64,000 nucleotides of DNA from Candidatus Omnitrophota bacterium. Its GTDB lineage: Bacteria; Omnitrophota; Gorgyraeia; Gygaellales; Profunditerraquicolaceae. The stretch lies in NCBI GenBank assembly GCA_022710715.1, contig JAKLGJ010000003.1, positions 89,083 to 153,082 on the forward strand, given 5' to 3'. The notes below the pieces were generated by a model. The model did not search any database and was not told the origin of the DNA. It was given only the letters and a program-made list of their open reading frames with translations. The stretch's first letter is position 1. Every line of letters starts with the position of its first letter. Positions 7,847 to 64,000 of this stretch are shown piece after piece. The translations under genes were made by a program, and so were the position numbers.

Positions 7847-7861
7847 GATGCTCCCTCCTGG

Positions 7862-31546: not shown

Positions 31547-31564
31547 GCTTTCTCCTGATCGCTG

Positions 31565-31597
31565 AAAATAAAAAACCCAAGGCAGCGATACCTTGGG
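31565..31597 (-). terminator. Strong intrinsic terminator 8 nt upstream of the RBS of giant gene A1, a putative transcription attenuator
   Basis: Minus-strand CCCAAGG-TATCGCTG-CCTTGGG followed by TTTTTTATTTT. A second GC hairpin CCCGCTGCCAAATGCAGCGGG lies at 31631-31651, further upstream. Confidence 0.6.
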
Positions 31598-31796
31598 TGA
31601 AAAAAACGTTCCCTTTGGTAACGCAGCCTCCCGCTGCATTTGGCAGCGGGACTGTCGCTTTGCGCCCCCCGATTACTCGAGGTTTGCCTTTATCAGTAGA
31701 ACTCTTCTTCTACTTACCTATTATTACTATTATATTTCCAACATATTAAGTATAGCACATTTTTGCTAAATTTCAACCTTACCAATTGCACAATTA

Positions 31797-42786: not shown

Positions 42787-42913
42787 GCAGACGCTTTCCC
42801 CATCCGCATGTAGCACAAAGATTTACAAAAATATTATTTGGCACCGCTAAATTGACGCATAAATAATATTTTTGCAACCGACTGCGGCACATGCGGATGG
42901 GGAAAGCGTCTGC
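42787..42913. repeat. 127-nt intergenic inverted-repeat element, copy B
   Basis: It ends 2 nt before the stop codon of giant gene B1 and lies upstream of the A2 start. Its arms and core match copy A. Confidence 0.75.
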
Positions 42914-42915
42914 GA

Positions 42916-45900
42916 TTACAATAAGGCTATGAGTTCTTTCAGGTCTGATGGAGTTGAGATAGCGCGCTCTTCTTCCATCTCCAGGATCGCGCTCACGCAA
43001 TCCACCACCTGCTTTTTCTGCTTCAAGGCATCCTGCCGGCCTGCACACGCCACCAGCAATTCTTTCATTTCCCGGCAGGGCATCTCGCCTTTAGCCATGG
43101 TTTTGCGGATATCCGCCCAGCGTTGATCCAATTCCGCCAGGCTCAATCCGGCCAGTGCTCCGGCAGCGGCTGCGTCAATCGGCGCGACAGCCGGCAGCGA
43201 CTGCACGGGCAGCGCCCGCATATCGATACCGCCGAGATCCGCAGGCGCCTGGGCATTCTCAACCGGCAATCCGCCATTCAGCAGGGCTTTCTCAACAGCC
43301 AACCGGACATACTCGTCCAGGATCTCTTCTCTGGACTTGCCGCTGTCGATCAGCGCCACCAGCATGGGGAAGAACGGCTGATTCCAACTAAGTCCGGCAA
43401 GTTCGCGCATCACGAACTCACTACGCCGCCCATAATAAGCCAGCGGAGCGATCATCTTATAAATACTATACTCTTCAATGCCCGCAGCTTTTCCCTGAAG
43501 CATCAGTTCGTTCGCAGCCTGCAGGCCGCCTTCCACCTTGATCAACTTACCGAGATGATTTTCTTCACGTTTATTCAACGCCTGTTCGAATGCGGCGATA
43601 GCGAAGAAACGTTCTTTTCCGCTATCCCCGACCAGTTGTTGATTGACCACATCGGCATTGAAATCGTTGCAAAGCGCCTCATACACCACCGTAGACATTG
43701 CTTCGGAAGCCAGGTTAACCTCGGGATGATTCTTAGCTGCGCTGAACACCGCCACCATCATCCTGGCCGTTTCCGCGCGACGGCGCGTACCGCTCAAACG
43801 GAAGATATTGGCGTCAATATTCAATGACAGCGGATACGCCATCCCGGGCTTGAATCCCGCTTCTGTCATCAACGGGATCAATTGTACCAATTCAGCGCTG
43901 AATGCTTCGGCCTCCCGGACGGAAAAACTCCGTTCCAGCGTGCCCCTGAAAATGCTCTCCAGAATGTTATTAGTCATCACTGCATTGATGCCATTTCTCC
44001 GCATGACCGGCAGCAATTTGATGACCGCCTCTCGCATTTGCGCGCCTTCTTCAGGATGCATAGCCTCAACAGCGACGACGATTTCATTGATATCATTCGG
44101 CCCCAACCCCGCTCCGGCCAGTTGCAGAATCAGCCGGCCGTTTTTCTTCAATACCCCGGCGCTCTGTTTCAAACCCTTAAGCCCCTCAAAAACAGACTTG
44201 AATACGGCGTACGAACTCTCCTTCTTGCCGCCGTCAGTACTTTCCGTTGTTGCAACCTGCCGCTTCCAATCTACAGCTGCAAGAACTTTGCATAGATCCA
44301 GCTCGTAGCCGGCCATCGAAACCACATCATCGACCAATCCACTGGTCTTAGCTTCCTGCACTTCAGCCTCATCGGGACCGGCTGCCACCATGAATTTCAG
44401 CGGCCGCCGCTCTCTGCCATTGGCCCGATCAAGCTTGTCGAGCTGGCGGACAAACCAGCTTCCGTTTTCCTTGATCAACTTCGGCATCAACTCATCGAAC
44501 TTTTCCCAAAATTCGTCTTCGCGCATCGCCCGGGTGAACTCCGCTTCGTTGCGATCGAGCCCGAACCGTTCGAACTGCTTCCACGTCCCGCCCATCGGGA
44601 AATCGTTATCCGAGATGACGATATCGATGCCGCCGCGCTCCTGCGTCACCGCCTGATACAGGCCGAATGCGGTATAAGCGTCGCCGGCGACAAAGATATT
44701 TTCCGGTTTCACTCCGATCCCCGCCAGTAATTGCTCGATACCTATCTGCCAGTCGATTTCGTCTATCACCACCAGAACTTTCTTATCCCGGATCTGCTCG
44801 CCGATCTTCTCCGCCACCAACGGCACCAGCACAGTTTCGACCAGAGGCCGGTACATATAGGAAGTAGTCTTTCTCGATTGCTCGACAGCAGCGATCGCTT
44901 TATCGAGAGTAACCGGCACGGTTGCCCCGCTATGAGATAAGCGTCTTGCCTCTCCGGTCAACCTGTCTGCTCCGGCGGCAAAAGCTGTTTTGATCCCGCT
45001 AACGATCTTCTCGCCTGTCGACATTTCCTCCTCGAAAACAAACCCGGCAGCTTCAGCCAGGTCCCGGACTACCATGGGAATGGTAATCTCCATTCTCGGT
45101 TTGCTGACTATCGCCGCGATCATTCCCCTGGACTTGGCCGCCTCGGCACCCGACTCTTCCGGATCGGCGCCGGACGTCCAGATGATCGGGATATCGATCC
45201 CCTGCCCTTTGTTCACCTGCTGAATCTGATCAGCCAGCCACAAGCCATCTTTCTCCAGATGCTCGGCGCTGAACGGCATGCTGTGGTCGGTGCTGACCAG
45301 ATCGAATGCGCGGCCCTGCGCGATCGCTTCCCGGTACTTCTCCAGTGCTTCCACCGGATTGCCCGCTGTTTCTATATCGGAAAAACCCAGCGAACGGTAC
45401 ATAATGGAAACGAGTTCACGCATTGCTTTTTCATCATCCACCACCAGGATACGCTTATCGCGCGCGTATTCCCGGACATCCTTTTTGACCAGTTCAATCA
45501 AACTAAAACTCAATCTATCGTATTCACGCTGATTGCGCGTTTGCATGGCGAGCGTATACGCATCTTTTATCTCCTTCGCGCGCGCGCCGCCGTCGCCGGG
45601 AATTTCCGCCACCGCTAATCCGTCCAGTGCCGACTGTCCTGCCGCGAATTCTTCCAAAACGTTCTGACGCTGGAACAGCTTATGTTCCAGGCTCTTGATC
45701 TTCGCTTTGCTTAATTTCATCCTTCTAGCCAATCCTGCGTCGCGGACTCCGCCCCTCATCCGCTGCACTTCCATATCCGCCAGACGCTCTTTTTCTTTAA
45801 GAAGGATCTGCTGCCATCTGGCATAGTTCTTCCCGCCGTCCAAAGAACCGACCAGGAACACGTCGTCGGCAGCCGGAATAACCCGCTCATTGCCCTTGTA

Positions 45901-48900
45901 CTGGCCGTTGGGATCAAGGCCGTCTTTTCCGACAATAACCAGCCACAACCCGATATCCTTGCCGTCCCTGTCGACGATTGCAGCGGTATCATAGACTTCG
46001 CCGCCGTTAACCTCGGCCTGCATCCAGCTATACCCGTTCATGGTCAGGACACCGAGATTTTCCAGTTCGTGAAGCAAAGCGAAGCGGATTTCCTGCCTCG
46101 TATCTCTATTAACCGCTTCATCCGTATATACGTTAATAAAGATATTGTCGCCTTTTTTAAGCTTCGACCAATCGATGGTCTGATCTTTACCGGCGTACTC
46201 TTTAGCTTTTTTTACCGAGATGACCGGATCCTTGATGCCGTTTTTGGCCAGAATACTCTCCAACTCGTCTATAACGTTCACTTTGTTGGTATAGAGCAGC
46301 GGCGACATAAACTCTACCGGTAACAGGAACGACGCGCGATTAAGGATTGCGCCGGGCTGTTCAAGAGTCAACCGGTCCTCCTTCTCCTCTTCATCAGCCT
46401 GAAAGGACCCAATAGAATAGTCTCTTTTGAGCATGCTCATGATATCAGGCAGTTTTTGATTTATTTTGTGGTTAACATAGCGGCCTGCAAGAAACACCCC
46501 GACGATCCCGGCGAAGACGCCAAAATACACCGCAGTAGCAACACCCAGGAATTGCATGATTATTAAAGCCGGAATAGCAACGAAGCCGAACCCATAAATG
46601 CTGGTTGCCGGAAAAATCCTCTTGCCCATGATATATTCCAGCAACTCGACGTCCGGAAGATTGTCCATTTGGTTCCTGAACAGAACCTCGTTGACAGTAA
46701 CAATGTCCAAGTCCTTTTCGGGGATGCTTCTCAACTCCTTGATCACCTCGTTGACCGGCCGCGAATTCCTGTCCAGGGTTTGATCAAGGAACAGGTTCGT
46801 CCCTATTTCGCGAACGAAAGCGTCCAACGCCAGATATCTTTTGGCACCGGTGAATAAAGAATACGCACCTACCAGCACCAATGGCACCCCTGTTATCAGA
46901 CTGCCGATGGTTGTGGCAGTCAGCAGCAGAAAAGCGCCGGCACCGGCAATCGTCGTATACATCCCGAGAGCAAGCATAGATTTCTTCCGGGCTTCGGCGA
47001 ACAATGCTCTTAAGGCAGTGAGGCTGCGCGCGCTGTTAAGCCCTTTCCTCTGCATGTCGAATACGGTTTTGTATACTTCATGCGCGGGATATTTGTCCGC
47101 TTTAGCGTCGATCCCGGTGAACTGCTCTTCTATCAGCTTGTTCTCCTGTATCTTCTTGAGCGTCTCTTCTTTCCCGCCGTCCTGAACCTCGCCTTCCACT
47201 TCAGCCCTGGTCTTTTTGAACTGATCGTTTACTCGTTCAACCGTCAGATATCCGCCCAGATAGACAATCCCTGCAACGCACAATCCCAGCACCACCCCCA
47301 ATACGCCCATTATCGGCGAGATCATGCCTACCAGGACAGCCCCTATCAATCCGCCGGAGGCAATCACAGGCGCTGCGGCAAAACCGCTCCAGAGCATCTC
47401 ACGCGTCCTTAAGAAGCCGGCATATCTTTCGATCGCCCCGGGTTCCTGCTTCAGTTTATTCACCAGGAACCTGAATTCCCGCTCCATCTTTTCCCTATCC
47501 CTGCGCAGGATATCGGCATAATAGGCTTCACGTGACGGCTCTTTCAGCTTGTGCCTGTCATAATACCCTTCGTCGAAATTATATACGCTCATAATCGCTT
47601 TCATCTGCGCGTACACCCGCCGGTTGCCGCCGTCGCTAGTTCTTTCGTCTGCCTCGTCAACGATCCGGCCGTCTTTTTCCCGCGCAAACTTCTCCGCCAG
47701 CTCGACAATATCCTTAACGCCGGCCTCGTCCATCGCGCGCTTGATCCCCTTGACTGCGGATATGACCATGGCTTGCGAGAAAGCGTCGTTGGAGTAATCT
47801 CTCCAGGCAGGATCAGGATTTATTCCGCCTTTATTGAGGATGAGCGTTCCGATGCTTCGTGCATGTCCTAAAACCTCTTTTTGCCAGCGCACGTAGGCAG
47901 CCAGGCCGAAAGCCGTCACCGCCCCGACAGCCGCGACCAGGCCCAGGGGATGCGCGATGAACATCACGAACCCTGCGGATCCCAGCACGCCTAAACCGAT
48001 CAATCCCGGGATGCTGTATTTCGCCCGATCCTGTCTTTTTTGCGCGAAGGCAACGTACTCCGACAGCTCCTGGTCGGTATACTTCTTCGCGGTCAGATAG
48101 TTCCTCGCTCCTTGTGCGGCTTGATCGATCTGCCCGACGACGTCGGACTCTCGAGACGCATTGCTCTGCAGCAGAATAAACAATCGTTCGAGCTCGTCAG
48201 TAAGCGCGTTCCAGCGCTTGCGGGTTTCGGACGTGATTGTGATTGAAGACGCCTTCAACGTGCCGCCGTCGACGGCTTGCGGATCAACCGCATCGGTCAT
48301 CGACGCGGGGATCTCTATCCTGGTCACCCCGGTAACGACATCCTTGGTCCTGTTCACTTTCCCCGCCCAATAAAAACTCCTGGCATACGACCGGTAGCTT
48401 TCTCCGGTCAATCTGCCCCGGATATACCCATCCGATATATACCGCGACCCGCTCGAGTACTCGTCATTGGCCAGGATAACTTCCATGCGCTGTCCGTTAT
48501 TCAACACTACCGTAACCGGGACCCCGTACAGAGCGACGGATTTAAAATCCAGCGAAATCTTATCCCAATCCGACTTTTTCAGGAGCGCTCGTTTAGTGTA
48601 CGTTCTGGGGCTCATCAGCTTGATTACCGCCGTAAGGCTGGAGCGCTGGCGCTTTTCCAGTTCGGGATTTTCAGCCATCGTTTCATAGATCTTGACCGCT
48701 GCCGGCCGGAACATGGCCAGCTCAACCAGCCTGTGAATGAGCGTTCTGAAAGTTTCCGCATCATACGAATCGGTTCTATCGATGAAATCCCACTTATCCC
48801 CGAAATGCAGGTGATCGTATCTCTCGCGCACATCCCTTTCCGCCGCTTCAAACGCGCTGTCTATACGGTCCTGAAGCGAGCCGCCGTCGTTAACTTCGGC

Positions 48901-51900
48901 GGACTGCTCGTCAGACTTCTCCTCCGGCGGGGCCAGGAACTTAACCGTCACCCGGTACTTGCTGGTCGGCGAGCTTATCTTGAACGTTCCTGCCGGCGAT
49001 ATCAGGATCAGGTTATCAGAGCCTTCTTCCAGATAAATCTTCCAATCGCCGGTATAGCTGATCTGAAAAGGAACGACATATTCTCTCTGGACCTTGTCGG
49101 TTTCGGTAATCTTCGTTTGCTTGACTTTATTCAGAGAAGAAATGATCAGCGTCTTTTTACCGTTATCCCTGTACCAGACAATAGTCCCATGCTTACGGAA
49201 AGGCACAACCAGCAGATCAGCGCGCACCGCCTTGTATAACTCATCCAGCGCTTTGCCTTCCGCGCTATTGCCCTCCGAGCTATTTTCGAATTTTTTCGCC
49301 CGGATAGCCAGACCGCGCAGAACGTCGGCTGCGCGTATTGCATCTTCGCGACTATCCACCTCCGCCAGCTTGATCTCCTGCGCCTGCGTCGCATCATCCC
49401 CGCCGTCGTTACCGGCAGCATCATCGGCAGACGCGTCTTCTGCAGTCTTCAACATCAGGGCAATACCGCGCGCGCCTATCATCGGGTCGGATTCACCGGT
49501 CAAAGTACCCATTGTAAGCATGGACCTATATTCATCGGACTTGACAGGTTCCCGATACTGCGCATGATCAACGTGAACCATAAGAAACGGCGCCAGGGCG
49601 TTCGCTTTCCGGTCTATCCCCGTGATCGCTTTAAACACGTTGTCGTAAATCGATTTGCTGTCGAGGAACGCATACAGAATAGAATACAGCTTCATTTGTT
49701 CCCGCGGAGACCAGTTTTCGTTCACCACTTCATTCCACGTCTTCCCATAGGTGATAGCTTCCGCTGCAAAAAATATCTTGATCCGCTGGCGGATAGTCAA
49801 CCCGTCTTTTACCATTAATCCGCCATCCATACCCCTGAACGAACCGGGACCGTCTCCCCGCGCCGGCGGCTCCACTTCGCCCATGGTCCGCAGCACCTCG
49901 ATGGCGTCGCGCAGTTCCATAGCATAGATCTCTGAGCTACGCTGCGCAACATCCTGCGGTTCCACCTCAACGGCCAGAATATCCCTTCCACGATGGATCA
50001 CCGGCAACCCGTCTTCGTCAGTCTGGCTACCGCTGATATACAATCGCTCCGGCATCAATTCGAGGTATGGCGTGATCGCGGTGCGCTTGAATGCCGGCTG
50101 CATCTTGATCTGCGCAGCGACCTGCTGCAGCTGGAGATACTCCCGCGCGCCCGACTGCTCGCCACCGCGCACTTTGGCCAGGCCCCAGTCCCACAAAGCC
50201 ATCGCCCAGCGGTCATACAGCGAGACCTCGCTTGCCAGTTGTCCGCCGTCGTTGTCCGTTTCGCGCGCCGGGATCTCCATGCCCACAATCCCGCCGACTG
50301 CGCCGGTAGACTTGCGCTCATGACCGGCCAGATAAAAAATATGGCTGCGCGGCTGCTCTTCTCCGGCATATTTCCCGAAGAAGCCGTTGTTGGTATAGCT
50401 GGTCCTGTTAGAAAGAATTACTTCTTTTCTCTGGCCGTTCTTGAACACCACGGTAACCGGAATGCCGTACCTGCTCACCAGGCCGATGTCTTCAGCGACC
50501 AGATCTTTTTCCGCAAACGTATCGACCTTATTCAGAAGGTCCTGAACGGAATAACTCCTCGGCCGCAGCAATTCGACCGCCTGCTGCAGGACAAACTGCT
50601 GGCGCTGGCTCATGCCGCCTTTTTTGAGCATCCGCTCATATTCTTCTACCGCCGCAGGTTTATACAATGCCAGGTCGATCAGCCGGTGGATCACGGTCAA
50701 TTCCTTGCCCTCGCTGTAATGCTTGCGCATGGATTTATACATTTCCCGGTCGCTGAAATGCAAAGTGCCGAATTCCCTGTCCAGTTCTTCTTCCGCCGCA
50801 TCGAATATTATATCGATACGGTCTTTGATCGTTCCCCCGTCGTTATCGGCGTCGCGCGCCGGGATCTCCATGCCTACGACCCCGCCGATCGCGTCGGTTT
50901 CCCCTTTGAAAGGCTTGCCTCTCCAGTACAACAGCATCATCCTGTCGTGCTCATCTCCGGCGTACTTCACATAGAACTTACCGTTGCTCAACCATTCCGG
51001 CCCGTGATCATAATGGCTGTTGTACAGAAACACTTCCTGCCTCTTGCCGTTCTTGAAAATGACCGTAACCGGAATACCGTAATCGCGCACCATACCCAGG
51101 TGATCGGCCATTTCCCGCGATATTTCTTTCTTGCTGAAATCCACTTTCCCGTACACCCGCGGAGTCAAAAGATCAACTACTTTGGTTAATGCCGCCCGGT
51201 CGCGCTTATTCGTCCCGGGATCAGCCAGCAACTCTTTGTAGAGGTCCAGCGCTTCCGGGATAATGATACCCATGGTCACCAGCTCACCGATAAGCAAGCG
51301 TTCGATCTTATCCCGGTACTCGTCAGACAAACTCATATAGAAATATTTTTCCCGGTTATGCAAATTATTGTACTCCTGCGCAAATTCCTTATCCGCGGCT
51401 TCGAATACGCGCCGCACCCGGTCGCGCATCCGCTGCCGAATCGTCCCCCCGTCGCTGGCCTCCGAATTGAGGACTTGCTCGGCCGTCGCGTTAGTTTTCG
51501 CCATCTGATAGGTAAAAATAGCCGGCAGCCAGGCAAAAAATGCGGTGGCGGCGAGGCCAATTTCCAGGCTGTGAGTGAACAAACCGCCAAAAATTCCGCC
51601 TATAGCGATGAACAATCCACCTATGATCATGCCTATGGCCATCATCCAGTTTTTGGCCCAGTAGAAATTACTCTTACCGCGGGATCTGGAGTAAGAATCA
51701 CCGGCGGTATCGGTATAAGCGTTCAACCCACCCACCAGGTCAGGCGCATGTAAAATTGACGATATCAAATAGAACATTCCAGGATACAAGCCGAGAATGC
51801 TGGCTGTGATAAAATCCGTAAATATTTTAGTCGTGGCCAATGACGGCACAGCCAGCATACTTACCACCAGTGCAACCGGCAGAACAAAATAAATCAGCGG

Positions 51901-53172: not shown

Positions 53173-53228
53173 CTTTTACTCCTTTTTAAAGTTTCAATTA
53201 AGTGAAAATAAAAAACGCCGCGATCTTT

Positions 53229-53251
53229 TTAGAACCGTGGCGTAATTCTAA
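53229..53251. promoter_or_regulatory. Palindromic site TTAGAA-CCGTGGCGTAA-TTCTAA, about 60 nt upstream of the B1 start codon
   Basis: Its counterpart upstream of B2 at 62565-62589 reads TTAAGAA-CCGTGGCGTAA-TTCTTAA. The spacer is identical and the arms carry compensatory changes. Confidence 0.5.
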
Positions 53252-53324
53252 CAGAAAATTTGTTCCTGTGTTTGAAAACGCTTTCAGCTTTTTATATAAA
53301 TAAGTATACCCTATAAAAAGCTAA

Positions 53325-53377
53325 TTTTCAAGTGGTGGGCGCTCCCTTATCCCCTTGTCGCACAAGGCTTAAGGGAA
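53325..53377 (-). terminator. GC-rich hairpin just downstream of the B2 stop, a putative terminator or 3' stabiliser
   Basis: GGTGGGCG...CCTTGTCGCACAAGG...CGCCCACC, an imperfect dyad. On the minus strand it is followed by a moderately T-rich run (TTGAAAATTAGCTTTTTATAGG). Confidence 0.4.
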
Positions 53378-53396
53378 ACGCCCACCTGTCTCCCAT

Positions 53397-56300
53397 TTAT
53401 GATATTGCCAGTTGGATAATTTCCTTCATTTCACCGGCAGTAGGAAGCGCACGCTCCTCTTCCATTTCCAGTATCTGCTTGATGAACAATACCGCTGTAT
53501 GCATCTGCTGCGTTGCATCTGCGCGGGCATTACATACCGCGACGAATTCTTTCAGCTCCCGGTACGGCATGGAGCCGGATTTCACTTTCTCCTGAATGTT
53601 CAACCATTTGGCGTCTAGTTCGGCCAGCGGCATCTTCATCGCCTGCGGCATTGACTGCAGGATCTGCGCCGGATTGACCGCGCCGATCACCGCCTGCGAC
53701 TGGATCGGCAGAGCCCGGAAATCCACGCCGCCGGTGTTATCAGGCGTCTTCTTGGCAGCGGCAGCGTCCGCTACTGCCTGCGCCGGGCCGGATTTCAGCA
53801 GCGATTTAAGCTTTTCAATGATCGCCGTAAATCTGCCGCCGTCATTTTCTCCCAACTCATTGAACAAAACCTTTTTAGCAGGTTCATTCAACTTGTCGAT
53901 ATTTTCTTCGATCAGCGCATACACAAAAGGCTGGTCTCCGGCCGCTTCCAATCCTCTTTCGGCGATTATCTTCTCTTCCGCCTTTGCGATATGCACTAAA
54001 GCTTCGGCCGTCTCGTCAAGATCATACCGGCCGTCTTCGAGTATACGCCAGAGAGCTCTGGCTTTGAGAATATCCTTCCCGTTATCGTTATAGTCCCAAA
54101 GAAGTTCCGCAATTTCCTGAACATTATTTTTCGTTTTTATCCCGGCCTGATCCATCACCAGCAGCAAAGCGACTTGAGCTTTGATGCTGAACGGGGCAAT
54201 TTTACCCAACGCTGTTATCGCTTCAGAAACTCTCTTTACTTCGCCCGATTCAGGAATATAATCCTGCTCTCTGCTGAAACGGGTCAAAAGCATCGGCACG
54301 TACAAAGTGAGACCAAGCTTCTCCTGGACGATTTTACGGCTGACGTCCTGACTGTCTGTTCTGATTATCCTGCTATTGATCAAACCTAAGGTCACTCTGG
54401 CGGGTTCGCTTGAGGCAAACTCGTCAAGTCCGGTCACGGCGTCGATACGCTGTTTCAATGCCCCGTCGGCCTCGATGTCAATGAACAGACGGAGCATCCC
54501 GATGGTGAAAATGATCTTATTCTTCACATATTCTCTGGCAAAAGGATCTTTATTTTCGATCCCTTCCATCAGATTTGCCAGATACTGCGCATACTGTTTG
54601 TTTTCCAGCATATAATTCATATCTTCAATTTCGGCAATGAGAGGCTCGCCGACTAACGTGCGAAGCTTGATCGAGATATTTTCGTTAACCAGCGGATCTT
54701 TTCCGCCGTCGAGGTCGTCCAGGTCCAATCTGGCAATAGCATTACGGTACACAGCTTGCACTGCTTCGTAATTACTGCTGCTATTTTCTATGACGTCGAT
54801 TTCCTCTCTGATGTTTCGCATCTGGCCCGCAGTCCTGTTCGCGAGCGACATACTGCCATACATCGGCATGTTTCGCAAAGACCGATAATTCGCCCGCAGT
54901 TTTTCAGTTTTCTTATTTGCATCATCAAGGGCGCCGTCTATATTCTTAATCATCTGTGTGAAGAAAATCTTCAATCCCGCGCTGTCCCTGCTTTCTACAA
55001 ATTGTCTTACTTCCCTCAAATCGACCGTGCCGTTTGACCCCTCTTTCATTTCCTCAACGATTTCGGCCTTGAATCGATCGATCTTCAGGTCATGCGCCAG
55101 CGCATCCGCGAAGGCCTTGAGCGCTGCATTGGTCTCAAGAGGATTGTTGGATTCGGCAAAGAATGCATCGTCTTCCACTATGCCCGCGTTGATCAATCTT
55201 ACCAGTTCTTCAGCAACCGCCTCGCGGATTCTCTGCGCATCCCGCGCCTCATCCGGATCATTGATCAACTGGTAGAACGTTGACAACGCCGGACCATTGA
55301 TCGACTTTTCACTTCTGAATATCGTTCCCAAAGCCCGCACTATGGTTTCCCTTAAAGAAACGTGGGCGGCCGATTTTGAACCCAACAACAAAGCTGTGAT
55401 CATTTCAGCTTTCCGTTGGTCGTTAGCTTTCACCAAAGTAACCATATCATTAACCGTCTCGGTCAAATCGGATATCGTACTATTCTTGCTGGCGAATCTA
55501 GTCAGCGCTATGCTTGAATTCAATGCTAAAGAATCGATAACAGCCGGATTCACGGCTTTCAACGTTTCGCGCAAACCTGTCAGAAAAGCAATGTTATTCA
55601 TTAACCCTTCATAAACAACTGCCTTTTCAAGAATGGAATAATCATTGTTTGCTACGGCGATCATCGTTAGCGCTTCCGCAGCAATAGCTGTTTCCCCCTG
55701 CGAGCTGCGATCAAAGTTCGCGATGATGAAATCAGCTGCCGGGAGATAACCCAATTTACCGAGTTGCTGAATAATTTCAATCTTTTCTTCGAAATCCATC
55801 TTTCCATAAGCATTGAACTGCTTGGTGAGCTCCTGGAACCTTGCCATTTGGACCCGCCGCTCTTTGGTCAACCCGCCGTCAGAGACCTCGCCATTGATCT
55901 CGTCAAGTTCAGCCAGGGCCAGTTCGGCCTGCTTGCGCACTGCCATGGACTCCTGGTCATTTTCGTTGTAATTATTATTCAGAACATCATGCAGAACATC
56001 TCTGGCGTACTGCGTGTTGATCCGTTTTAACGCCCAGATCGCTTCCCGCTTGACTTCGAGAGACGCGATAGCGCCTTTACTCAAGATCGCCGCCAGGCTC
56101 TGAACAGCCGCCACAGGCTCGAACCGGAACAGATCAGCCACAGCCCGGATCGCGGTAATGCGCGTTCTTTCCGCTCTGGGATCCGCCCTGTAGGTCTCTC
56201 CCTGTCTCACCTGCATCGCCGCAATCACCGCCCGCAGAACATCAACATTGCCGACTTCAGTCAGCTTCTGGATCGCTGCCCTGCGCAACCCCGTAGACTT

Positions 56301-59300
56301 GTTCTGCAGAACATCCAGCATCGCGTACATAACTATTTCAATATCACCGCTGTAGTCCTTTAAGATGTTAACGATATTAAGCTTATCGTGAAATTCTCCT
56401 AATGTTGCATTGCGCTGATTAAGCTCCTGATTATAGAATCTGATCTCGACATCCTGGACCTTCGTTCCTCCGTCAAAAACGTCCGCGTCCTGTTCAATCG
56501 CCGAAGCTAAAATCGTGAATAAAGCAGCAACTGCAGCTTCTTTGGCTGCTTCATTTTCGTTATTACTGCCTATTATCCTGACCATCGACATGGCTTCATC
56601 TAGATTACTATCCACTGCGGTCTTTTCACAGGCTCGCGTGACCAGGGAAAAAGCGCCCCAGGTGTAATCTGTCCTCCAATGGCTCCAGGCAATCAAACCT
56701 ATACCCATAAAAGCAAACTCTGGTTCAACCGGCCCCATCCGGGTATACAGATCGGCAAACTCCGAGAGGCCCATTTTAAGTTCGGGAGTCACTTCCACCT
56801 TGGACTTCCCCGAGGCAACATCCCGGAGAAATACTGCAAACTCCCTGGCTTCTTTCTGCACATCGCCTATCGTGCCTTCATCAGCCGCTCTAATATCGTC
56901 AATGCTTAAATATCTAAAATAAGTCTTCGAATTCTGCTTTTTTAAATTCTCGATTATCGTTTTATTGGTAGTGCGCAACGCATAGTCCGCATTATCAGAC
57001 AGTCGTCTGATTGCCAGATCAAGAACTCTGTCGTCTGCGATATCTCCCACAAAAGCATCGTAATTATTCTCGATCAGCTTGATATCATCGCGGAACATCC
57101 TGGTGATGCCTGCGTAGTGTGACGACGCTTGTCCATCTCCTTGAGCGATGAACTGAATAATCCGCAGGCCTCTTTCCATCTGGGGTATCAATTCCCTCAC
57201 GACCTTAGCGCTGCCGCCGTCGGCTACGGCTTCAGGCTGCACGGGTAAGCGAACGGTCTCCAGATCCCTGGCGAAACGATTGAGGTTTTTAATATTTTCA
57301 TTGAGCGTAGCTATACGCGGTTCAAACGTTCTCACCTGCTCCAACTGATCGTTTCGCTGATGAATATAGGGCGCCCACTCTTTAACCTGTTTATCAGACG
57401 GTCTTTCGCCACGCCAAGCAGCTTCAATACTATCGGCAATACGCTTATTCTCCTGGGCCGACAATAACAGTTGCTGTTTGTGCTGAATCGTGAGATCCAA
57501 TTCATCCTGCAAAGTCTGAATAAGCTCGTCTACGAAATTGATAAGCGCCTTCTGGTTCTTGATTCCTTTCAATTCGGCACGCTGATCGGCGGTAAATTCG
57601 ACGGCCTCTTCGATCCGGCCGGCGAATTTCTGCACCTCGCTCTTAGCGTCGAAGATCAACCCGAATTCAGCTGCTTTAAGGATGTCCAACGTTAAATCCT
57701 GCAACGCCAGATCCCCGTGTTTAACCGCAATGCTCTTTATAATTTCTTCTTTATCAGACGGGAAATATACATTCAAACCGTTGGTCCAGGCCAGATAACG
57801 GATATGCTGCTCAATATCCGCATCTTTATCCTTCACCCGTATCGTCTGGAGATTAGGCTTAACCGCCCTTCCTTCCCACAACGAGAGCTCCCAGGCATAC
57901 TTACCGGTCAACAAATCCGGCAACTCGCGAAAATAATACGGAGATTCCCAATCATGCTTGCCGCCGTCATTGAGCTCCGAAACATGCACGACTTCGCCTG
58001 TGTTTCCCACACTTCCGTAGTATACCTGCCCTTCGAGATTATTCTTGGGTAAACCCAGCTGGTTGGCGCGATCCATATATATTGCCGCCAGCATACTTGC
58101 TTCTTGATTAACACTCGAACTGAAAAGCGCGTCCTTAACGCCCATTCCAAAGACTTCTTCGAACGTTCCTTGAATTGTTATCTGCACATCCTGGGCTACT
58201 TCGTGAAAATAGTTGGTTTCTTTGACCGTAAACGTTTTGCCTTTCAGATTCGCCGGCTTGCTCGCATTCTCTCTGCCTTTACCGAATTTGGCAAATTCAA
58301 CCGCGCTGTCCTCCTTAGCCCAGGACAGCGGTTTGCTGATATCATCTTCCGAGACCATATCCGGCTTACCGAACACCTTGAACTCCACCGGCTCGGTGCT
58401 TTTCGCTGCATCTAAAGTCAGTTGGGGAATCGAAGTCCACGCATCTTCAATAGTATCGCCCATCAGCCGTATTGACTGAATAGTATCTTTATAGATCGGC
58501 GCGAACTCGTCGCTGTCAAGATCCTTGACATACAGCCAGAACGGAAAATAATCGTTGTTCAAATATTCGAATTTACAATCCCACTCGACGCCGTCCTTGA
58601 AAACGACAGTGATCTTTTGCCCCTTGAAAGGCTCAACCAGTTTAGCCTGGACGGCCAATCCGAAATTCTCCATTGACAGCCCTGTCCGCAATCCCGATTG
58701 CAACTCCTGGACGGAAGGCAAGCCGGCTTTTTTGACCAGGCGGTCAAGGAAAAACCGGTACATTTTATTGCTTAGTACGATCGCGATCACACCCGCGCCC
58801 ATTGCCGCTGCGAAAGCCAAAGCGAATCCAAACGGCATAAGCGCCGCGCCAAGCACTATAATCGTCGCCGTAGAAACGGCCGCCGAATACTTGATCGCTT
58901 TATCTTTCAGATCTGCGAGTTGAGAATCCGAAAGCTTATCCTTCAAATTCCCGCCGTCTCCGGTTTCCATTCCGTCATTCCTCAGCGAGGTTTCCGGCGC
59001 ATAATTATCTATTATTTTGTCTGTTACCCCCAACAATCCGGTAAATACAACCCCACCCAGGACAATTCCCATCGCATATTGAGCCAAGCTAATATTCGGG
59101 TTAGCGATCATCATATTACCGGCCAAGAATGAGCCAAGGATCATCCGTCCCGGGAAAGTCAACACCAAATAGTCGGTAATCTGACGCACTATTTCCTTAC
59201 TTACTATTTTAGTCGCCATCCATATCAATGCGTCATATGCGAGGCCGCCCACGATACTGCCCATCGCATAGTGCGCGAGAGTATTTGTCGGATCAGTGAT

Positions 59301-62300
59301 CATCGATAGGCTCATAAGGGTCGAACCAACCAGAAAACGTCCGGAGTGAGTAACGGTTAGAAAATCAAAAAGACTCCGGTATACTTCTTTGCTTTTGCGA
59401 TTGCCGCCGTCCGGCGAGCCGACCAGGAACACGTCGTCGGCAGCAGGAATCACCCGCTCATTGCCCTTGTGCTGGCCGTTGGGGTCAAGGCCGTCTTTTC
59501 CCACAATGATCAGCCACAGCCCGATGTCGTTTTTGTCGCGATCGACTATCACTGCAGTGTCGTAAACTTCTCCACCGTTGAGCTCCGCCTGCATCCACCT
59601 GTACCCGCTCATGGTCAGGACGCCCAGATTTTTCAGTGCCTTAAGCAATTCAAAACGGATTTCCTGCCGCGTGTCGGCGTTCACATCCTCATCCGTATAC
59701 ACGTTGATATATATATTGTCGTTTTTCTTAAGCTTCGACCAATCGATCGTTTGATCCTGGCCGGCGTACTCCTGGGCTCTTTTCACCGAGATAACCGGGT
59801 TCTTGATCCCTTTTGCGGTCAGCACCCTCTCCAGTTCGTCGATCACGTTGACTTTGTTCGATTCAAGCAGCGGAGACATAAACTGTTTAGGCAGTGTGAA
59901 CGACTCGCGGTTAAGAATGGCGCTTGTCTCTTGCAGCGTCAACTGTGCTGACCCTTCTAAATCAAGCGGATCAAGTTTAAAATATTTAGGATCTGCATAA
60001 GCGATAAATCCAAGATATCGTCCCACCAGAGTATAAATATTTCTGTCATTAGCGAGGGACGCCATGATTTCCATTCCCGCAAGAATAGCCTTGGCTTTCT
60101 TTGCACTGGCTTGCGTTTCAAAAAGTCCTTCCTCACGCAGCATCTTCTCTGCCGAAGCGACCTTGTTTGATGAATCCCTAACCCGATGAGCGCAAGTACT
60201 CACAATTTGAGCAGCACTATTAAATTCATCTTCATTTAGTTCATGCTCAGTCAAAACTTTAACGATTGCCTGTATCTGTTTTTCGATCTGCTTTCCATAA
60301 GAGCTTAGACTATCCCTATGCACGTCCAAGTGCGATACGCTAGCCAAGTAGTCAGACACAAACTTAGCTCTCTGCGCCGAAACAACAGTCAGCCGGGCTT
60401 CCTTCTCCTCCTCTTCAGCAGCCTGATTGGGAGCAAAATAATACTCCTCTTTGAGCATGCTCATGATATCAGGCAATTTTTGATTTATTTTGTGGTGAAC
60501 ATACCTGGCTGCAAGAAAGACTGCAGCGATCCCGACAGAGACACCCACCATCACCGCCGCAGAGACGCCCAATAATCCCATAGTCATTAAAGCCGGAAAG
60601 GCAACAAAGCTGAACCCAAAAATGCTGGTTATCGGGGAAGTCCTCGTGCCCATGATATACATCAACAAATCGATATCCGTCCGATTCAACATCTTGTTCC
60701 TGGACAAGACTTCTCTGACCGTACCGCGGTTCAATTCCTTTCCGGGAATACTTCTCAACTCCTTGATCACCTCGCCGAACGGCCGCGAATTCTTGGCCAG
60801 GATTGGATCAATGGTCAATTGCGTCCCTATTTCGCGGACAAAGGTATTCAATACCAGATACCTTTTAGCCGATAAAAATAATAAAAAACCGCCTATCAGA
60901 AACATGGGTACCCCTGCTATCAGAGTACCGCTTATAGAAAGGAAAGCGCCCACCCCAAGAATCATCGTAGCCTGACCCATTCCAAGCGCCGATTGTTTCC
61001 GAGCTTCGTCGAACAATGTTTTTAAGGCAGTGAGGCTGCGCGCGCTGTTCAATCCTCTCTCCTGCAATTCAAATACGGTTTTGTATACTTGATTCGCTGA
61101 ATATGACTGCGCTTCAGGCTTGATCTCGTTGAACTTCTCGAAAATCTGCTGATTCTCCGCATCTGCTTTCCCGCCGTCCGGCCCCTTCTCATCCTGTGGG
61201 GGAGCCTTAAATTCTTCGGCGACCCGGTCTCTGGGCAAAGCTGCGCCGCCGGCTTTCAGAGGCATCTTCGACACGGCAAGTGCGAGTTCAGCTTCGAGCC
61301 CATCATCAATAATCCTGCCGTCCGGCTTCACTTTGATCAAACCTTCTTCGAAGCGGGTGCCGGCAGGAATTTCTACGGTCGGACGGGAGATCGCTTCGTA
61401 ATTCTGCGCGCCGCCGGCCTTCAATGTGAAAGCTGACGGATCTATATCGGCAAACCTGATGCCGCCGCTGAAGTACTGGCGGATAATCATGCCCGTGGGA
61501 GTTGAAACAGTCTCGCTGATATTGTATTCGCCCTTCTCGAATGATCTCTTGTAATCATTGAAATACGTGTCCCTGGACCAGGCTTTGGCGCTGGTCAAGC
61601 CGGTCAGGTCGCGCTGGTCGATCTTTGATGCGGCGCTGCCTTCCTGGCCGCGGTATTTCTCCTTGAACCACTGCGCCAGAACCAGAGAATAATACACCTG
61701 GCGCAATGCGGCATACTTTTTCGACGAGTTGACTTCGCGGGTAAGTTTCGGAAGGATCTCTTTACGGATGATCGCGGAAGAATATTCGTTGAGCTGCTTG
61801 ATCTTGGGATCGTTGGACTGGAACAACGCGTTGTTGGGAAGCCAATCCTGCTCCAGCATGACTTTCAAAGTGGCTTTAAAAATGTAAGCGCTGGCAGGAG
61901 TTTCGCGCACCAGGATCTCGCCCGGAACAATCCAGGGGCGGGTGATGGTGGGAATGGTAATGTCCTGACGGCCGAAGATCTCTTCGGCTTTGGAATAAAG
62001 TTTGTTCCAGTAATTCTTCCCCTCTTTGGTCTTGGGGGAAGTAAAAGCAGCCATGTCTTTCTTCAGCTGCAGATCGGCAGCAAGCAGAATACGGCCGACT
62101 TCGGTTCTCTCCAGCCAGGGGTCGATAACCTGATCTTTGGCATCCGGGCGCAAATTAACCCAGAAAGTGGAATTCGGCAGAGCGATCCCTATATTGAAAT
62201 AGGAAACCAGTTCTTTAGTGGTTAGTTGGACCTGCTGCGGCTTGATCTTGCGCGCATCGCCTTTGTCCAGAAGCAGGTTGAAATCCTGGCTTTTCTGGTC

Positions 62301-62468
62301 AAAGCTGATGCTGCGCAACTGCACCGGGCGGAATTTGTCCGGGGCGACATAGCCGTTGATGTATGTCGGAATGTTGAATTGCGGAGCGACTTGAGCGAAA
62401 CCTGATTGTTCAAGAACCAGACAGAAAACTACTGCGAATGCGACAATGCGTTTTACTAATTTGAACAT
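53397..62468 (-). CDS. Giant modular membrane/surface protein B2, about 3020 aa (3036 aa from the track's start at 62507). It is a paralogue of B1.
   Basis: I prefer the ATG at 62468, which has an AAGGAG RBS 7 nt upstream and gives MFKLVKRIVAFAVVFCLVLEQSGFA, aligning with the B1 N-terminus. The family B N-terminal domain is at about 61420-62468. The central shared block is at about 59400-61180 (TM cluster plus LTLQETSAILN...FLVGSPDGG), with near-identical DNA stretches to B1, for example 46441-46470 versus 60458-60487. It has multiple internal TM clusters. HEAT/ARM-like alpha-helical repeats occupy the C-terminal third. The family B C-terminal domain is at 53397-53715. Confidence 0.8.
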   Translation of the reverse strand: MFKLVKRIVAFAVVFCLVLEQSGFAQVAPQFNIPTYINGYVAPDKFRPVQLRSISFDQKSQDFNLLLDKGDARKIKPQQVQLTTKELVSYFNIGIALPNSTFWVNLRPDAKDQVIDPWLERTEVGRILLAADLQLKKDMAAFTSPKTKEGKNYWNKLYSKAEEIFGRQDITIPTITRPWIVPGEILVRETPASAYIFKATLKVMLEQDWLPNNALFQSNDPKIKQLNEYSSAIIRKEILPKLTREVNSSKKYAALRQVYYSLVLAQWFKEKYRGQEGSAASKIDQRDLTGLTSAKAWSRDTYFNDYKRSFEKGEYNISETVSTPTGMIIRQYFSGGIRFADIDPSAFTLKAGGAQNYEAISRPTVEIPAGTRFEEGLIKVKPDGRIIDDGLEAELALAVSKMPLKAGGAALPRDRVAEEFKAPPQDEKGPDGGKADAENQQIFEKFNEIKPEAQSYSANQVYKTVFELQERGLNSARSLTALKTLFDEARKQSALGMGQATMILGVGAFLSISGTLIAGVPMFLIGGFLLFLSAKRYLVLNTFVREIGTQLTIDPILAKNSRPFGEVIKELRSIPGKELNRGTVREVLSRNKMLNRTDIDLLMYIMGTRTSPITSIFGFSFVAFPALMTMGLLGVSAAVMVGVSVGIAAVFLAARYVHHKINQKLPDIMSMLKEEYYFAPNQAAEEEEKEARLTVVSAQRAKFVSDYLASVSHLDVHRDSLSSYGKQIEKQIQAIVKVLTEHELNEDEFNSAAQIVSTCAHRVRDSSNKVASAEKMLREEGLFETQASAKKAKAILAGMEIMASLANDRNIYTLVGRYLGFIAYADPKYFKLDPLDLEGSAQLTLQETSAILNRESFTLPKQFMSPLLESNKVNVIDELERVLTAKGIKNPVISVKRAQEYAGQDQTIDWSKLKKNDNIYINVYTDEDVNADTRQEIRFELLKALKNLGVLTMSGYRWMQAELNGGEVYDTAVIVDRDKNDIGLWLIIVGKDGLDPNGQHKGNERVIPAADDVFLVGSPDGGNRKSKEVYRSLFDFLTVTHSGRFLVGSTLMSLSMITDPTNTLAHYAMGSIVGGLAYDALIWMATKIVSKEIVRQITDYLVLTFPGRMILGSFLAGNMMIANPNISLAQYAMGIVLGGVVFTGLLGVTDKIIDNYAPETSLRNDGMETGDGGNLKDKLSDSQLADLKDKAIKYSAAVSTATIIVLGAALMPFGFALAFAAAMGAGVIAIVLSNKMYRFFLDRLVKKAGLPSVQELQSGLRTGLSMENFGLAVQAKLVEPFKGQKITVVFKDGVEWDCKFEYLNNDYFPFWLYVKDLDSDEFAPIYKDTIQSIRLMGDTIEDAWTSIPQLTLDAAKSTEPVEFKVFGKPDMVSEDDISKPLSWAKEDSAVEFAKFGKGRENASKPANLKGKTFTVKETNYFHEVAQDVQITIQGTFEEVFGMGVKDALFSSSVNQEASMLAAIYMDRANQLGLPKNNLEGQVYYGSVGNTGEVVHVSELNDGGKHDWESPYYFRELPDLLTGKYAWELSLWEGRAVKPNLQTIRVKDKDADIEQHIRYLAWTNGLNVYFPSDKEEIIKSIAVKHGDLALQDLTLDILKAAEFGLIFDAKSEVQKFAGRIEEAVEFTADQRAELKGIKNQKALINFVDELIQTLQDELDLTIQHKQQLLLSAQENKRIADSIEAAWRGERPSDKQVKEWAPYIHQRNDQLEQVRTFEPRIATLNENIKNLNRFARDLETVRLPVQPEAVADGGSAKVVRELIPQMERGLRIIQFIAQGDGQASSHYAGITRMFRDDIKLIENNYDAFVGDIADDRVLDLAIRRLSDNADYALRTTNKTIIENLKKQNSKTYFRYLSIDDIRAADEGTIGDVQKEAREFAVFLRDVASGKSKVEVTPELKMGLSEFADLYTRMGPVEPEFAFMGIGLIAWSHWRTDYTWGAFSLVTRACEKTAVDSNLDEAMSMVRIIGSNNENEAAKEAAVAALFTILASAIEQDADVFDGGTKVQDVEIRFYNQELNQRNATLGEFHDKLNIVNILKDYSGDIEIVMYAMLDVLQNKSTGLRRAAIQKLTEVGNVDVLRAVIAAMQVRQGETYRADPRAERTRITAIRAVADLFRFEPVAAVQSLAAILSKGAIASLEVKREAIWALKRINTQYARDVLHDVLNNNYNENDQESMAVRKQAELALAELDEINGEVSDGGLTKERRVQMARFQELTKQFNAYGKMDFEEKIEIIQQLGKLGYLPAADFIIANFDRSSQGETAIAAEALTMIAVANNDYSILEKAVVYEGLMNNIAFLTGLRETLKAVNPAVIDSLALNSSIALTRFASKNSTISDLTETVNDMVTLVKANDQRKAEMITALLLGSKSAAHVSLRETIVRALGTIFRSEKSINGPALSTFYQLINDPDEARDAQRIREAVAEELVRLINAGIVEDDAFFAESNNPLETNAALKAFADALAHDLKIDRFKAEIVEEMKEGSNGTVDLREVRQFVESRDSAGLKIFFTQMIKNIDGALDDANKKTEKLRANYRSLRNMPMYGSMSLANRTAGQMRNIREEIDVIENSSSNYEAVQAVYRNAIARLDLDDLDGGKDPLVNENISIKLRTLVGEPLIAEIEDMNYMLENKQYAQYLANLMEGIENKDPFAREYVKNKIIFTIGMLRLFIDIEADGALKQRIDAVTGLDEFASSEPARVTLGLINSRIIRTDSQDVSRKIVQEKLGLTLYVPMLLTRFSREQDYIPESGEVKRVSEAITALGKIAPFSIKAQVALLLVMDQAGIKTKNNVQEIAELLWDYNDNGKDILKARALWRILEDGRYDLDETAEALVHIAKAEEKIIAERGLEAAGDQPFVYALIEENIDKLNEPAKKVLFNELGENDGGRFTAIIEKLKSLLKSGPAQAVADAAAAKKTPDNTGGVDFRALPIQSQAVIGAVNPAQILQSMPQAMKMPLAELDAKWLNIQEKVKSGSMPYRELKEFVAVCNARADATQQMHTAVLFIKQILEMEEERALPTAGEMKEIIQLAIS

Positions 62469-62564
62469 GGGAGACTCCTTCTCTTTGTCTCCCCTCCCCC
62501 ACAACATTGTGTTTTAAAAAAAACCCGGTTTTTAAAAGACTCTTTGCTTGCGCAATAGAGATCG

Positions 62565-62589: not shown

Positions 62590-62686
62590 ATTGACTAACT
62601 AACTCCTGATTGTACTAACAAGTATACGGATTACTGGACTGATTACAAGACGAAATATCAATATTATTGAAACCGCTTTCAAAACA

Positions 62687-63337: not shown

Positions 63338-64000
63338 TTATAAAATAGCCAGAATTTCCTTCATTGCCGGCGCAGTGACCACAGCAGCGTCCTCTTCCAT
63401 CTTCAATACTTCCATGATCCAGCTTGAAGCGCGTTTAAGACTCTCACAGGCGTCTTTGTTTCCGCCGCAAGCCTTAATATAGGAACGCATTTCTGCGTAC
63501 GGCATCTCGCCGGACTGCGCTCTGGCCTGGATCGCCTGCCACTGCTGATCCAGTTCCCGCACGTTTACCTGCGCCACAGCCCCGGCAACCGCTTCAGCCG
63601 CTACTCCAGAGCCTGCAACCGCAGCCGGCTGCCCGGCCACCACAGGGATCATCCGGAAATCCACGCCGCCGAGATCTTCCGGCGCCGCAGGTTGAACATC
63701 ATCCACCGCTGCGTCCTTCAGCCCGCCATCCAACGCATCGCCTTGAGCCAGCGGTTTCTCGATCTGCCCCAGAGCCTGCAACACGGCTACTGCGTCGCGC
63801 AATTCCATACTCGCGATTTCTCTGCTGTAATCCTTATACTCTTCCAGCGTAAGCTCTTCCTTAGGAGACAAATCCCTCCCCAGCACAACTACCGGGTCGC
63901 CGTTGTCATTCTTCAAGGTCGAGCTGATATACATTCTCTCCGGAAGCAATTCCTGTAGAGGCGTTTTAACGGTTTCTAAGAATTCGCGGCTGCCCGTAAT
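63338..64000 (-). CDS. C-terminal 203 aa of a third family B giant protein (B3), which continues beyond the window
   Basis: It ends with the family B C-terminal domain (GGVDFRMIPV...ELDQQWQAIQARAQSGEMPYAEMRSYIKACGG...IMEVLKMEEDAAV...KEILAIL). It also carries an MPERMYISS...YSREIASMELRDAVAVLQALGQIE module that is internal in B1, followed by a DGG. Confidence 0.7.
   Translation of the reverse strand: MTGSREFLETVKTPLQELLPERMYISSTLKNDNGDPVVVLGRDLSPKEELTLEEYKDYSREIASMELRDAVAVLQALGQIEKPLAQGDALDGGLKDAAVDDVQPAAPEDLGGVDFRMIPVVAGQPAAVAGSGVAAEAVAGAVAQVNVRELDQQWQAIQARAQSGEMPYAEMRSYIKACGGNKDACESLKRASSWIMEVLKMEEDAAVVTAPAMKEILAIL

Follow-up and report, generated by a model that had tools for sequence, protein, structure and literature searches.

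A 64,000-nucleotide stretch of a Candidatus Omnitrophota genome (assembly GCA_022710715.1, contig JAKLGJ010000003.1, positions 89,083 to 153,082), referred to here as the window, contains genes for the giant proteins A1, A2, B1 and B2 and part of a gene for a further protein, B3 (Table 1). All of the large genes are located on the minus strand. The subject of this analysis is a tripeptide, Asp-Gly-Gly (DGG), which recurs in B1, B2 and B3. Proteins of the window were scanned against Pfam and NCBIfam, and for B1 and B2 only Response_reg and HEAT_2 were matched. Several of the B1 modules have transmembrane (TM) hairpins, while one has a receiver domain. The probable start of B2 is Met14, at position 62468, which aligns with Met1 of B1. 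The same B1 is encoded in assembly GCA_035453765.1 and on a 1.62-Mb JGI contig.

A first-pass annotation of this DNA, made from the sequence, had counted 13 DGG tripeptides in B1, 9 in B2 and 1 in the B3 fragment; these counts were reproduced exactly. Its estimate of about one occurrence per protein by chance was in agreement with the composition-based expectations of 1.31 for B1 and 0.72 for B2. A comparison with composition-shuffled sequences, which the annotation had recommended, was performed, and none of 5,000 global shuffles reached the observed DGG count. The same was true of local shuffles within windows of 20, 30 or 50 amino acids (aa; 3,000 shuffles each). DGG was the top-enriched tripeptide in both B1 and B2 (Poisson probabilities of 1.5e-9 and 7e-8, respectively). 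As the annotation had also reported, the motif is not enriched in A1 or A2; neither protein has a single copy, as opposed to 3.7 expected for the two jointly (P ~0.03). The dipeptide GG is also underrepresented in these proteins, with 20 copies versus ~32 expected in A1 and 16 versus ~26 in A2.

The motif is strict. Within the 27,103 residues of 15 DGG-type proteins (of the family described below), DGG was enriched 10-fold, while other tripeptides of the form xGG, DxG or DGx were enriched no more than 2.3-fold. A longer form, [DN]DGG, had been overstated by the annotation; the preceding residue is Asn in 6 of the 22 B1 and B2 sites and is never Asp. The local context xDGG[KTSNQG] was borne out in part, with Lys, Thr, Ser or Asn following the motif in 16 of these 22 sites. 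In the relatives, Lys or Arg was preferred before DGG, whereas Asn was the commonest residue in the window. Thr, Ser, Asn and Lys were preferred after DGG; Pro, Tyr, His and Cys were never observed there and Phe was observed once.

Cutting of the proteins at DGG generated pieces that aligned end to end, in keeping with the claim that the motif falls at module boundaries. Residues 577 to 780, 781 to 977 and 1432 to 1637 of B1 are copies of one module of ~200 aa (33 to 39% identity), and the DGG-cut piece comprising residues 2001 to 2447 of B1 corresponds to residues 447 to 1035 of B2. The latter pair forms a central block whose end had been placed at DGG by the annotation, and the DNA alignment agreed: homology extends over aa 2006 to 2448 of B1 and aa 447 to 1036 of B2, with 73 to 79% identity, beginning 0 to 5 codons past one DGG and ending one codon past the next. 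Beyond these edges, no alignable similarity between the B1 and B2 DNA was detected on either side. For 98 sites in the 15 proteins, the segments between successive motifs had a median length of 195 aa (range, 29 to 1,845), and some pairs of DGG enclosed disordered spacers of 29 to 49 aa. In one relative, P0122, which has 12 DGG versus 0.9 expected, the two tandem copies of the same ~200-aa module are joined without the motif as a result of a 5-aa deletion, indicating that DGG is dispensable for the fold.

Structural models placed the motif in linkers. All four DGG sites that were modeled with AlphaFold were located in coil of low confidence (predicted local distance difference test score [pLDDT] of <50) between structured modules, which supported a suggestion in the annotation that DGG is an interdomain linker signature. 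In a model of the N-terminal region of B1 (pLDDT 75), residues 45 to 345 were folded, while residues 347 to 374 and 392 to 401, the latter containing DGG399, had a pLDDT of <50. A model of residues 560 to 1000 of B1 (pLDDT 64, from a five-row alignment) contained three DGG sites, each in a coil of pLDDT <50 between the last beta strand of a module and a helix starting two residues past Gly-Gly. Across the 98 sites, the proportion of order-promoting residues dropped to 0.18, from 0.33, over the five positions that precede DGG, with recovery ten residues past the motif. A crude hydropathy scan indicated that hydrophobic stretches between DGG sites are mostly 40 to 50 aa long or paired and hence form hairpins; the soluble modules and all DGG sites would then share one side of the membrane with the secreted N-terminal domain and the A2 peptidase described below.

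B1, B2 and B3 are members of a phylum-wide, multicopy family of Omnitrophota proteins with a signal peptide and two conserved ends, an N-terminal domain of ~340 aa (N-domain) and a C-terminal domain of ~110 aa (C-domain), between which unrelated modules are strung together in variable, extremely diverse sets. The first ~390 aa are common to B1 and B2 (62% identity) and the last ~110 aa to B1, B2 and B3. Searches with the N-domain detected 326 relatives, essentially all from Omnitrophota, and a scan of species-representative genomes detected 346 relatives, of which 78 distinct loci were retained, with several paralogues per genome. The N-domains of B1 and B2 end in R.Y.SGG and were 46 to 65% identical to those of 15 family members. 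In this domain 69 columns were invariant, and searches of Pfam and of solved structures returned nothing similar to it. Paralogues with N-domains were often arranged in tandem within Omnitrophota genomes. Members range in size from 640 aa to more than 3,700 aa, and some carry phosphoglycerate kinase (PGK), GAPDH, HD or HEAT domains, in part fused directly to the N-domain. Most members end in the C-domain, whose start, GG[IV]D[FLM]R, was detected in B1, B2, B3 and 46 of the 78 locus open reading frames (ORFs). A minimal member, of 640 aa, occupies the syntenic position in the closest genome and consists of an N-domain, DGG, a TM hairpin, DGG, 54 aa, DGG and a C-domain. With the exception of the N- and C-domains and a single weak match, no homologues of the B1 and B2 modules were found in the 78 loci, and the ~200-aa tandem module had two matches among 1.84 billion cluster representatives, one of which was a fragment of B1 itself.

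Enrichment of DGG is restricted to this family and to one lineage within it. Of the ORFs of at least 300 aa in the 78 loci and the window, 16 were enriched in DGG or in an alternative motif based on Ser-Ser-Pro (SSP), and 15 of these encode an N-domain. Eight genomes and the present one used DGG (77 observed versus 10.6 expected), with Ser-Ser-Pro at the level expected by chance; in the remaining genomes, DGG was at or below chance, while [AGS]SP[VILM], or a variant, SSA[IM], was enriched 10- to 25-fold. A neighbor-joining tree of N-domains grouped the DGG users into one clade. Both types of motif precede, by a few residues, the GGIDFR with which the C-domain begins (e.g., KDGGTGGIDL versus SSPVADSKGGIDFR). 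The strictness of the motif, its restriction to one family and its switching between lineages argue for a recognition site that coevolves with its reader. In loci L019, L039, L042, L066, L072 and L077, among others, the junction motif took the form [ST][AS][SAG]SP[VILM] or SSA[IM], again with 10- to 25-fold enrichment, and SSP-type motifs exhibited a preference for the codon TCG (47% versus a background of 11%) and also for CCG.

The absence of the motif from A1 extends to modules that A1 has in common with the B-type family. Residues 2986 to 3749 of A1 comprise two modules homologous (27 to 28% identity) to modules of family members at two other loci (L013, aa 1892 to 2184; L016, aa 1988 to 2279). 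The latter are bounded by DGG, whereas A1 has DAA or EAG at the aligned positions, indicating that modules pass from one giant family to the other, A or B, without their punctuation.

A candidate for the reader is encoded next to B1. A2, the product of the adjoining downstream gene, has an N terminus that consists of a signal peptide, a Ser/Thr-rich linker and then a C39 peptidase domain (PF03412, E = 1e-12), which also matched the ComA peptidase domain (3k8u and 5xe8; E = 1.5e-7). The catalytic residues are present, namely Gln138, Cys141, the His of GHYVTLIG and the Asp of YTDNN; no ABC transporter domain was detected in A2 by the Pfam scan. A small ORF has been called on the opposite strand over the Ser/Thr-rich region of the A2 N terminus (42140 to 42644). 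C39 peptidases are papain-like and Gly-Gly specific, and a Gly-Gly before the scissile bond is a hallmark of papain-like peptidases. The combination of a recognition-like motif, this hallmark and the neighboring C39 domain of A2 favors cleavage after DGG by a C39-type peptidase. Absence of DGG from both A1 and A2 would fit with avoidance of self-cleavage, and the low GG content of these proteins may similarly be due to avoidance of Gly-Gly sites near a Gly-Gly peptidase.

Cleavage had been raised by the annotation as one possible role of the motif, and we consider, with moderate confidence, that DGG is recognized by an endopeptidase that acts in trans and cuts after Gly-Gly, with the C39 domain of A2 as the best candidate enzyme. 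The DGG, located within a short hydrophilic linker (e.g., IPARDADNDGGTIKDRID in B1) at almost every module junction of this sublineage, would be read by the endopeptidase, and the B proteins would amount to bacterial polyproteins, processed into products the size of single domains, of which many would have a TM hairpin as membrane anchor. Cleavage, its position after Gly-Gly and the involvement of A2 are inferred, and processing is the best explanation for a strict motif that is confined to one family, replaced between lineages and encoded next to a C39 gene. A more elaborate version is possible but tentative: that Omnitrophota possess true polyproteins, which are exported, inserted into the membrane through their TM hairpins and then cleaved by the surface-exposed C39 domain of a neighboring giant at each DGG to yield up to 14 proteins per gene, that one sublineage replaced the junction code Ser-Ser-Pro/Ala-hydrophobic by Asp-Gly-Gly and changed its protease at the same time, and that the 8-nucleotide word maintains the frame when paralogues swap cassettes.

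Several observations weigh against a protease reading DGG, and against A2 in particular. No C39 domain was detected by tblastn at a distance of up to 10 kb from the 78 related loci, and the syntenic locus of the closest genome, where the 640-aa member has three DGG, has no A1 or A2; the link between A2 and DGG thus rests on one locus. Relatives of the A2 peptidase were not found in protein searches or in a metagenome scan. Public gene calls give A2 a length of 3,400 to 3,430 aa, starting at aa ~143 to 173, which would remove the signal peptide and Cys141; the long form is favored by that signal peptide and by an AAGGAGG sequence ~22 to 30 nucleotides upstream of the first ATG. A logo of 109 sites exhibited no amphipathic leader and no conserved upstream hydrophobic positions, which classical substrates of C39 peptidases require. 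Furthermore, the Thr, Ser or Asn that follows Gly-Gly is a good N-cap residue and is succeeded by a helix, as a structural role would have it, and the preference for GAC GGC among synonymous codons is compatible with a role at the DNA level.

Chance, compositional bias or inflation by internal repeats has a negligible probability as an explanation for the motif. Five of the 22 sites could have been inherited through duplicated modules, but collapsing of the sites duplicated in tandem copies or in the B1/B2 cassette left 17 independent DGG versus 2.0 expected (P = 7e-11), the shuffles, global or local, never matched the observed counts, and eight other genomes exhibited the same enrichment. With regard to a primary role in DNA, the annotation had proposed that the underlying sequence could serve as a microhomology junction for cassette shuffling. 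Among the 23 sites of the window, the first codon is GAC in 21 and the second is GGC in 20, while the third is free, as expected of an 8-nucleotide signal. Eighteen sites are exactly GACGGCGG, a word present in 20 copies in the window versus 4 expected, 18 of these being in-frame B1/B2 sites; at 75 sites from other species, GAC and GGC were each used in 81% of cases versus backgrounds of 38% and 41%, respectively. If GACGGCGG were an in-frame microhomology or recombination junction for duplication and swapping of cassettes, with DGG as its translation, these biases would be accounted for, as would the fact that homology between B1 and B2, and between tandem copies, stops at the motif. Most of this bias, however, is a codon-pair effect that these genes show in general: GAC encodes 66% of the Asp residues that precede Gly and GGC 66% of the Gly residues that precede Gly, as compared to 90% and 85% at DGG. 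The motif is nearly confined to one frame and one strand, its flanking residues have preferences at the protein level and no conservation of flanking DNA was detected beyond the 8-mer. Furthermore, the equivalent SSP motif uses both AGY and TCN serine codons, a mixture that would be intolerable for a DNA signal and indicates that selection acts on amino acids. Nearly every module is unique, so recent recombination does not account for most of the junctions. A primarily DNA-level function is improbable, and a pure DNA scar is weakened by the codon-pair control and by the serine codons of the sister motif. The part of the microhomology proposal that held is the exact identity of 18 of the 23 sites and the breaking of homology blocks at the motif, while the codon bias that accompanies it is mostly the NNC-GGN pair effect. 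We conclude that selection on the motif acts at the protein level, while the leftover nucleotide constraint may reflect or allow in-frame microhomology for cassette exchange; as the protein motif fixes an in-frame 8-mer at every junction, such microhomology probably keeps exchanges in frame. A Chi-like genome-wide DNA motif was rejected, since GACGGCGG was absent from the plus strand, 18 of its 20 copies were in-frame B1/B2 sites and GAYGGNGG outside the B genes occurred at the level of chance. In general, a C ending was strongly preferred in codons that precede Gly, both in the family genes of the window and in those of 13 related loci (Asp-Gly, 66% GAC versus 37% elsewhere; Gly-Gly, 66% GGC versus 40%).

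The main rival is a structural role, in which DGG acts as a flexible hinge with a helix N-cap directly after it and insulates modules so that they fold independently and the chain stays whole. This role is unlikely, although it fits with the location of DGG in coil with the next helix two residues on, with the short length of the linkers (~20 to 25 aa) and with the alternative motif, whose Ser-Pro is likewise typical of the start of a helix. Structural hinges and N-caps have degenerate sequences, yet only the exact DGG is enriched, and not NGG, SGG, DGS or DGA. The motif switches wholesale between lineages while the N- and C-domains remain 50% identical, it was deletable between two copies of the same module in P0122, and it flanks disordered spacers and directly precedes GGIDL where a helix is absent; in A1, the counterparts of DGG-bounded modules lack it. 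Recognition by something other than a protease would involve a docking or hand-off signal for a machine that translocates or assembles the protein module by module, or a site of posttranslational modification. A strict, lineage- and family-specific motif argues for recognition generally and not for proteolysis in particular, and the family is secreted and inserted into the membrane with many TM hairpins. However, no candidate machinery was found, a modification common to both motifs is unlikely because DGG and Ser-Ser-Pro do not share a side chain that could be modified, and a Gly-Gly in an exposed linker beside a gene for a Gly-Gly peptidase is more simply explained by cleavage; we regard this alternative as very doubtful. 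Spontaneous Asp-Gly chemistry and intein-like self-cleavage were set aside because the sister motif lacks such chemistry and the residue after Gly-Gly is not only Cys, Ser or Thr.

Other features of the window lie outside the B genes. Downstream of the TpsA gene are three consecutive ORFs of ~180 to 196 aa without Pfam matches (6687 to 8410), mirrored by three ~190-aa genes at the same place of the syntenic locus. This locus (L001/L003; GCA_029571225.1, JAKPTF010000013.1) is syntenic with the window for CBM96, TpsB, TpsA, the three ~190-aa paralogues and TMEM175, and has one 640-aa family member at the position where the window has B2, B1, A2 and A1. The presence of this single member suggests that the block of giant genes has recently expanded. 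A long palindromic element (arms of 52 to 54 nucleotides, ~82% complementary, with the core GCAGACGCTTTCCCCATCCGCATGT) is located directly downstream of B1 (42786 to 42914) and of A2 (31797 to 31923), and a shorter version with 19-nucleotide arms is found between the deaminase gene and B2 (62686 to 62814). Possible identities of this element are a terminator present in several copies and a mobile hairpin of intergenic regions.

Table 1. Genes, domains and DGG sites of the window
Feature	Positions	Strand	Description
B1	42916..53172	-	3,418 aa; signal peptide, N-domain, DGG-delimited modules, C-domain; 13 DGG
B1 N-domain	52138..53172	-	aa 1-345; ends RQYFSGG; conserved across phylum
B1 cassette	45832..47172	-	aa 2001-2447; four TM segments and soluble part
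B1 C-domain	42916..43233	-	aa 3314-3418; begins GGIDMRALP, ends EEERA...LIALL
B2	53397..62507	-	3,036 aa; architecture as B1, HEAT repeats; 9 DGG
B2 N-domain	61461..62468	-	aa 14-349; 62% identical to B1 N-domain
B2 cassette	59403..61169	-	aa 447-1035; homologue of B1 cassette with 145-aa internal insertion
B2 C-domain	53397..53732	-	aa 2926-3036; begins GGVDFRALP
B3	63338..64000	-	C-terminal fragment of third family member, leaves window; 1 DGG, then GGVDFR and C-domain
A2	31926..42644	-	Giant, 3,572 aa; Peptidase_C39 match at aa 166-257, TraG-D_C; 0 DGG
A2 C39 peptidase domain	41859..42272	-	aa 125-262; candidate DGG-specific protease (Pfam, structure-domain match)
A1	18632..31639	-	Giant, 4,335 aa; MgtE_N, FliG_M and DnaJ domains; 0 DGG
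DGG B1-399	51970..51978	-	GAC GGC GGC; disordered linker after N-domain
DGG B1-574	51445..51453	-	Start of tandem module 1
DGG B1-778	50833..50841	-	Junction of tandem modules 1 and 2 (pLDDT <50 coil)
DGG B1-975	50242..50250	-	End of tandem module 2
DGG B1-1116	49819..49827	-	
DGG B1-1256	49399..49407	-	
DGG B1-1429	48880..48888	-	Start of third ~200-aa module copy
DGG B1-1635	48262..48270	-	End of third module copy
DGG B1-1847	47626..47634	-	
DGG B1-1998	47173..47181	-	Left edge of cassette common to B1 and B2
DGG B1-2445	45832..45840	-	Right edge of B1/B2 cassette (FLVGSLDGG)
DGG B1-2527	45586..45594	-	
DGG B1-2980	44227..44235	-	
DGG B2-444	61170..61178	-	Left edge of B1/B2 cassette
DGG B2-1033	59403..59411	-	Right edge of B1/B2 cassette (FLVGSPDGG)
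DGG B2-1184	58950..58958	-	
DGG B2-1514	57960..57968	-	
DGG B2-1763	57213..57221	-	
DGG B2-2012	56466..56474	-	GAC GGA GGA
DGG B2-2210	55872..55880	-	
DGG B2-2600	54702..54710	-	
DGG B2-2889	53835..53843	-	C-domain 37 aa further on
DGG in B3	63722..63730	-	~20 aa ahead of GGVDFR
TpsA/TpsB pair	8629-13416 and 13443-15257	-	
Small proteins	in window		PEP-CTERM and CBM96
Deaminase gene	between B2 and B3		

The motif bears on whether the giant and large modular proteins of Omnitrophota act as single chains or as cut pieces. In two papers on these giants, posttranslational cleavage mediated by C39 or S8 peptidases was hypothesized and the cleavage points were described as unknown (West-Roberts et al. 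2023, bioRxiv 10.1101/2023.11.21.568195; 2026 complete-genome survey, 10.64898/2026.06.07.730766), and the lack of known cleavage points was said to have blocked domain-wise analysis (10.1101/2023.11.21.568195). The published giants resemble those of the window in phylum, in the combination of a signal peptide with many TM helices, in an N-terminal C39 domain close to the signal peptide, as in A2, and in embedded enzyme domains of cytoplasmic type; B1 and B2 differ in being smaller (3 to 3.4 kaa) and in having a distinct N-domain family. Term searches of both papers found no mention of a cleavage or junction motif or of DGG, and literature searches found no prior report of a DGG junction motif. 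The DGG sites look like a series of protease sites and are the first specific candidates for points at which these giants may be cut; they also provide a practical rule for splitting B-type proteins into units for structure prediction.

One parallel is with the double-glycine leaders that are cut by C39 peptidases such as ComA and PCAT, in which Gly-Gly, or Gly-Ala/Ser, occupies the two positions ahead of the cut. All 23 sites of the window have a Gly-Gly before the presumed scissile bond, in each case as Asp-Gly-Gly, and the C39 domain of the neighboring gene retains Gln, Cys, His and Asp and is similar to the peptidase domain of ComA. In contrast to the single N-terminal site of a leader, the DGG sites are internal and number up to 13 per protein; the leader helix of 15 to 30 aa with hydrophobic residues at -4, -7, -12 and -15 is absent at DGG, while the Asp is fixed in the third position; and the peptidase is fused to a secreted giant of 3,572 aa instead of to an ABC transporter as in PCAT. 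A classical double-glycine leader was, therefore, ruled out, the leader pattern being absent. Polymorphic toxins have demarcation motifs, such as VENN in CdiA and PxxxxDPxGL in Rhs. As with DGG, a short peptide marks the exact break in homology and its DNA can serve as a handle for recombination. These toxins have one junction before a C-terminal toxin and an immunity gene, whereas the B-type proteins have up to 13 junctions and a conserved C terminus, with a motif that changes between lineages, and no small immunity-like ORF follows B1 or B2.

In MARTX toxins, conserved N- and C-terminal regions enclose variable effector modules that are freed by an internal cysteine protease domain through cuts between modules. 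The B-type proteins are similar in their constant ends, in a mosaic of unrelated central modules that varies among paralogues and strains and in short linkers with a defined site, but Pfam and NCBIfam scans of B1 and B2 detected neither RTX-type repeats nor a C80 protease domain. Other differences from MARTX toxins are a DGG site in place of Leu-X, a candidate protease on a separate polypeptide and many modules with TM hairpins. Viral polyproteins are cut after Gly-Gly by papain-like proteases (the coronavirus PLpro, at LXGG, and the alphavirus nsP2), and share with the B-type proteins the presence of several units in one chain, a strict linker site ending in Gly-Gly and a lineage-specific sequence for this site. 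The present case differs in being a multicopy family of a cellular bacterium, for which cleavage is proposed from the motif and its neighborhood. In its manner of working, the family is closest to MARTX toxins and viral polyproteins, and it also resembles the demarcation motifs of polymorphic toxins, yet it fails the defining features of each. This family shows module shuffling, a junction code word and, possibly, the specificity of a protease evolving together, for which, to our knowledge, MARTX toxins are the one close precedent among cellular proteins.

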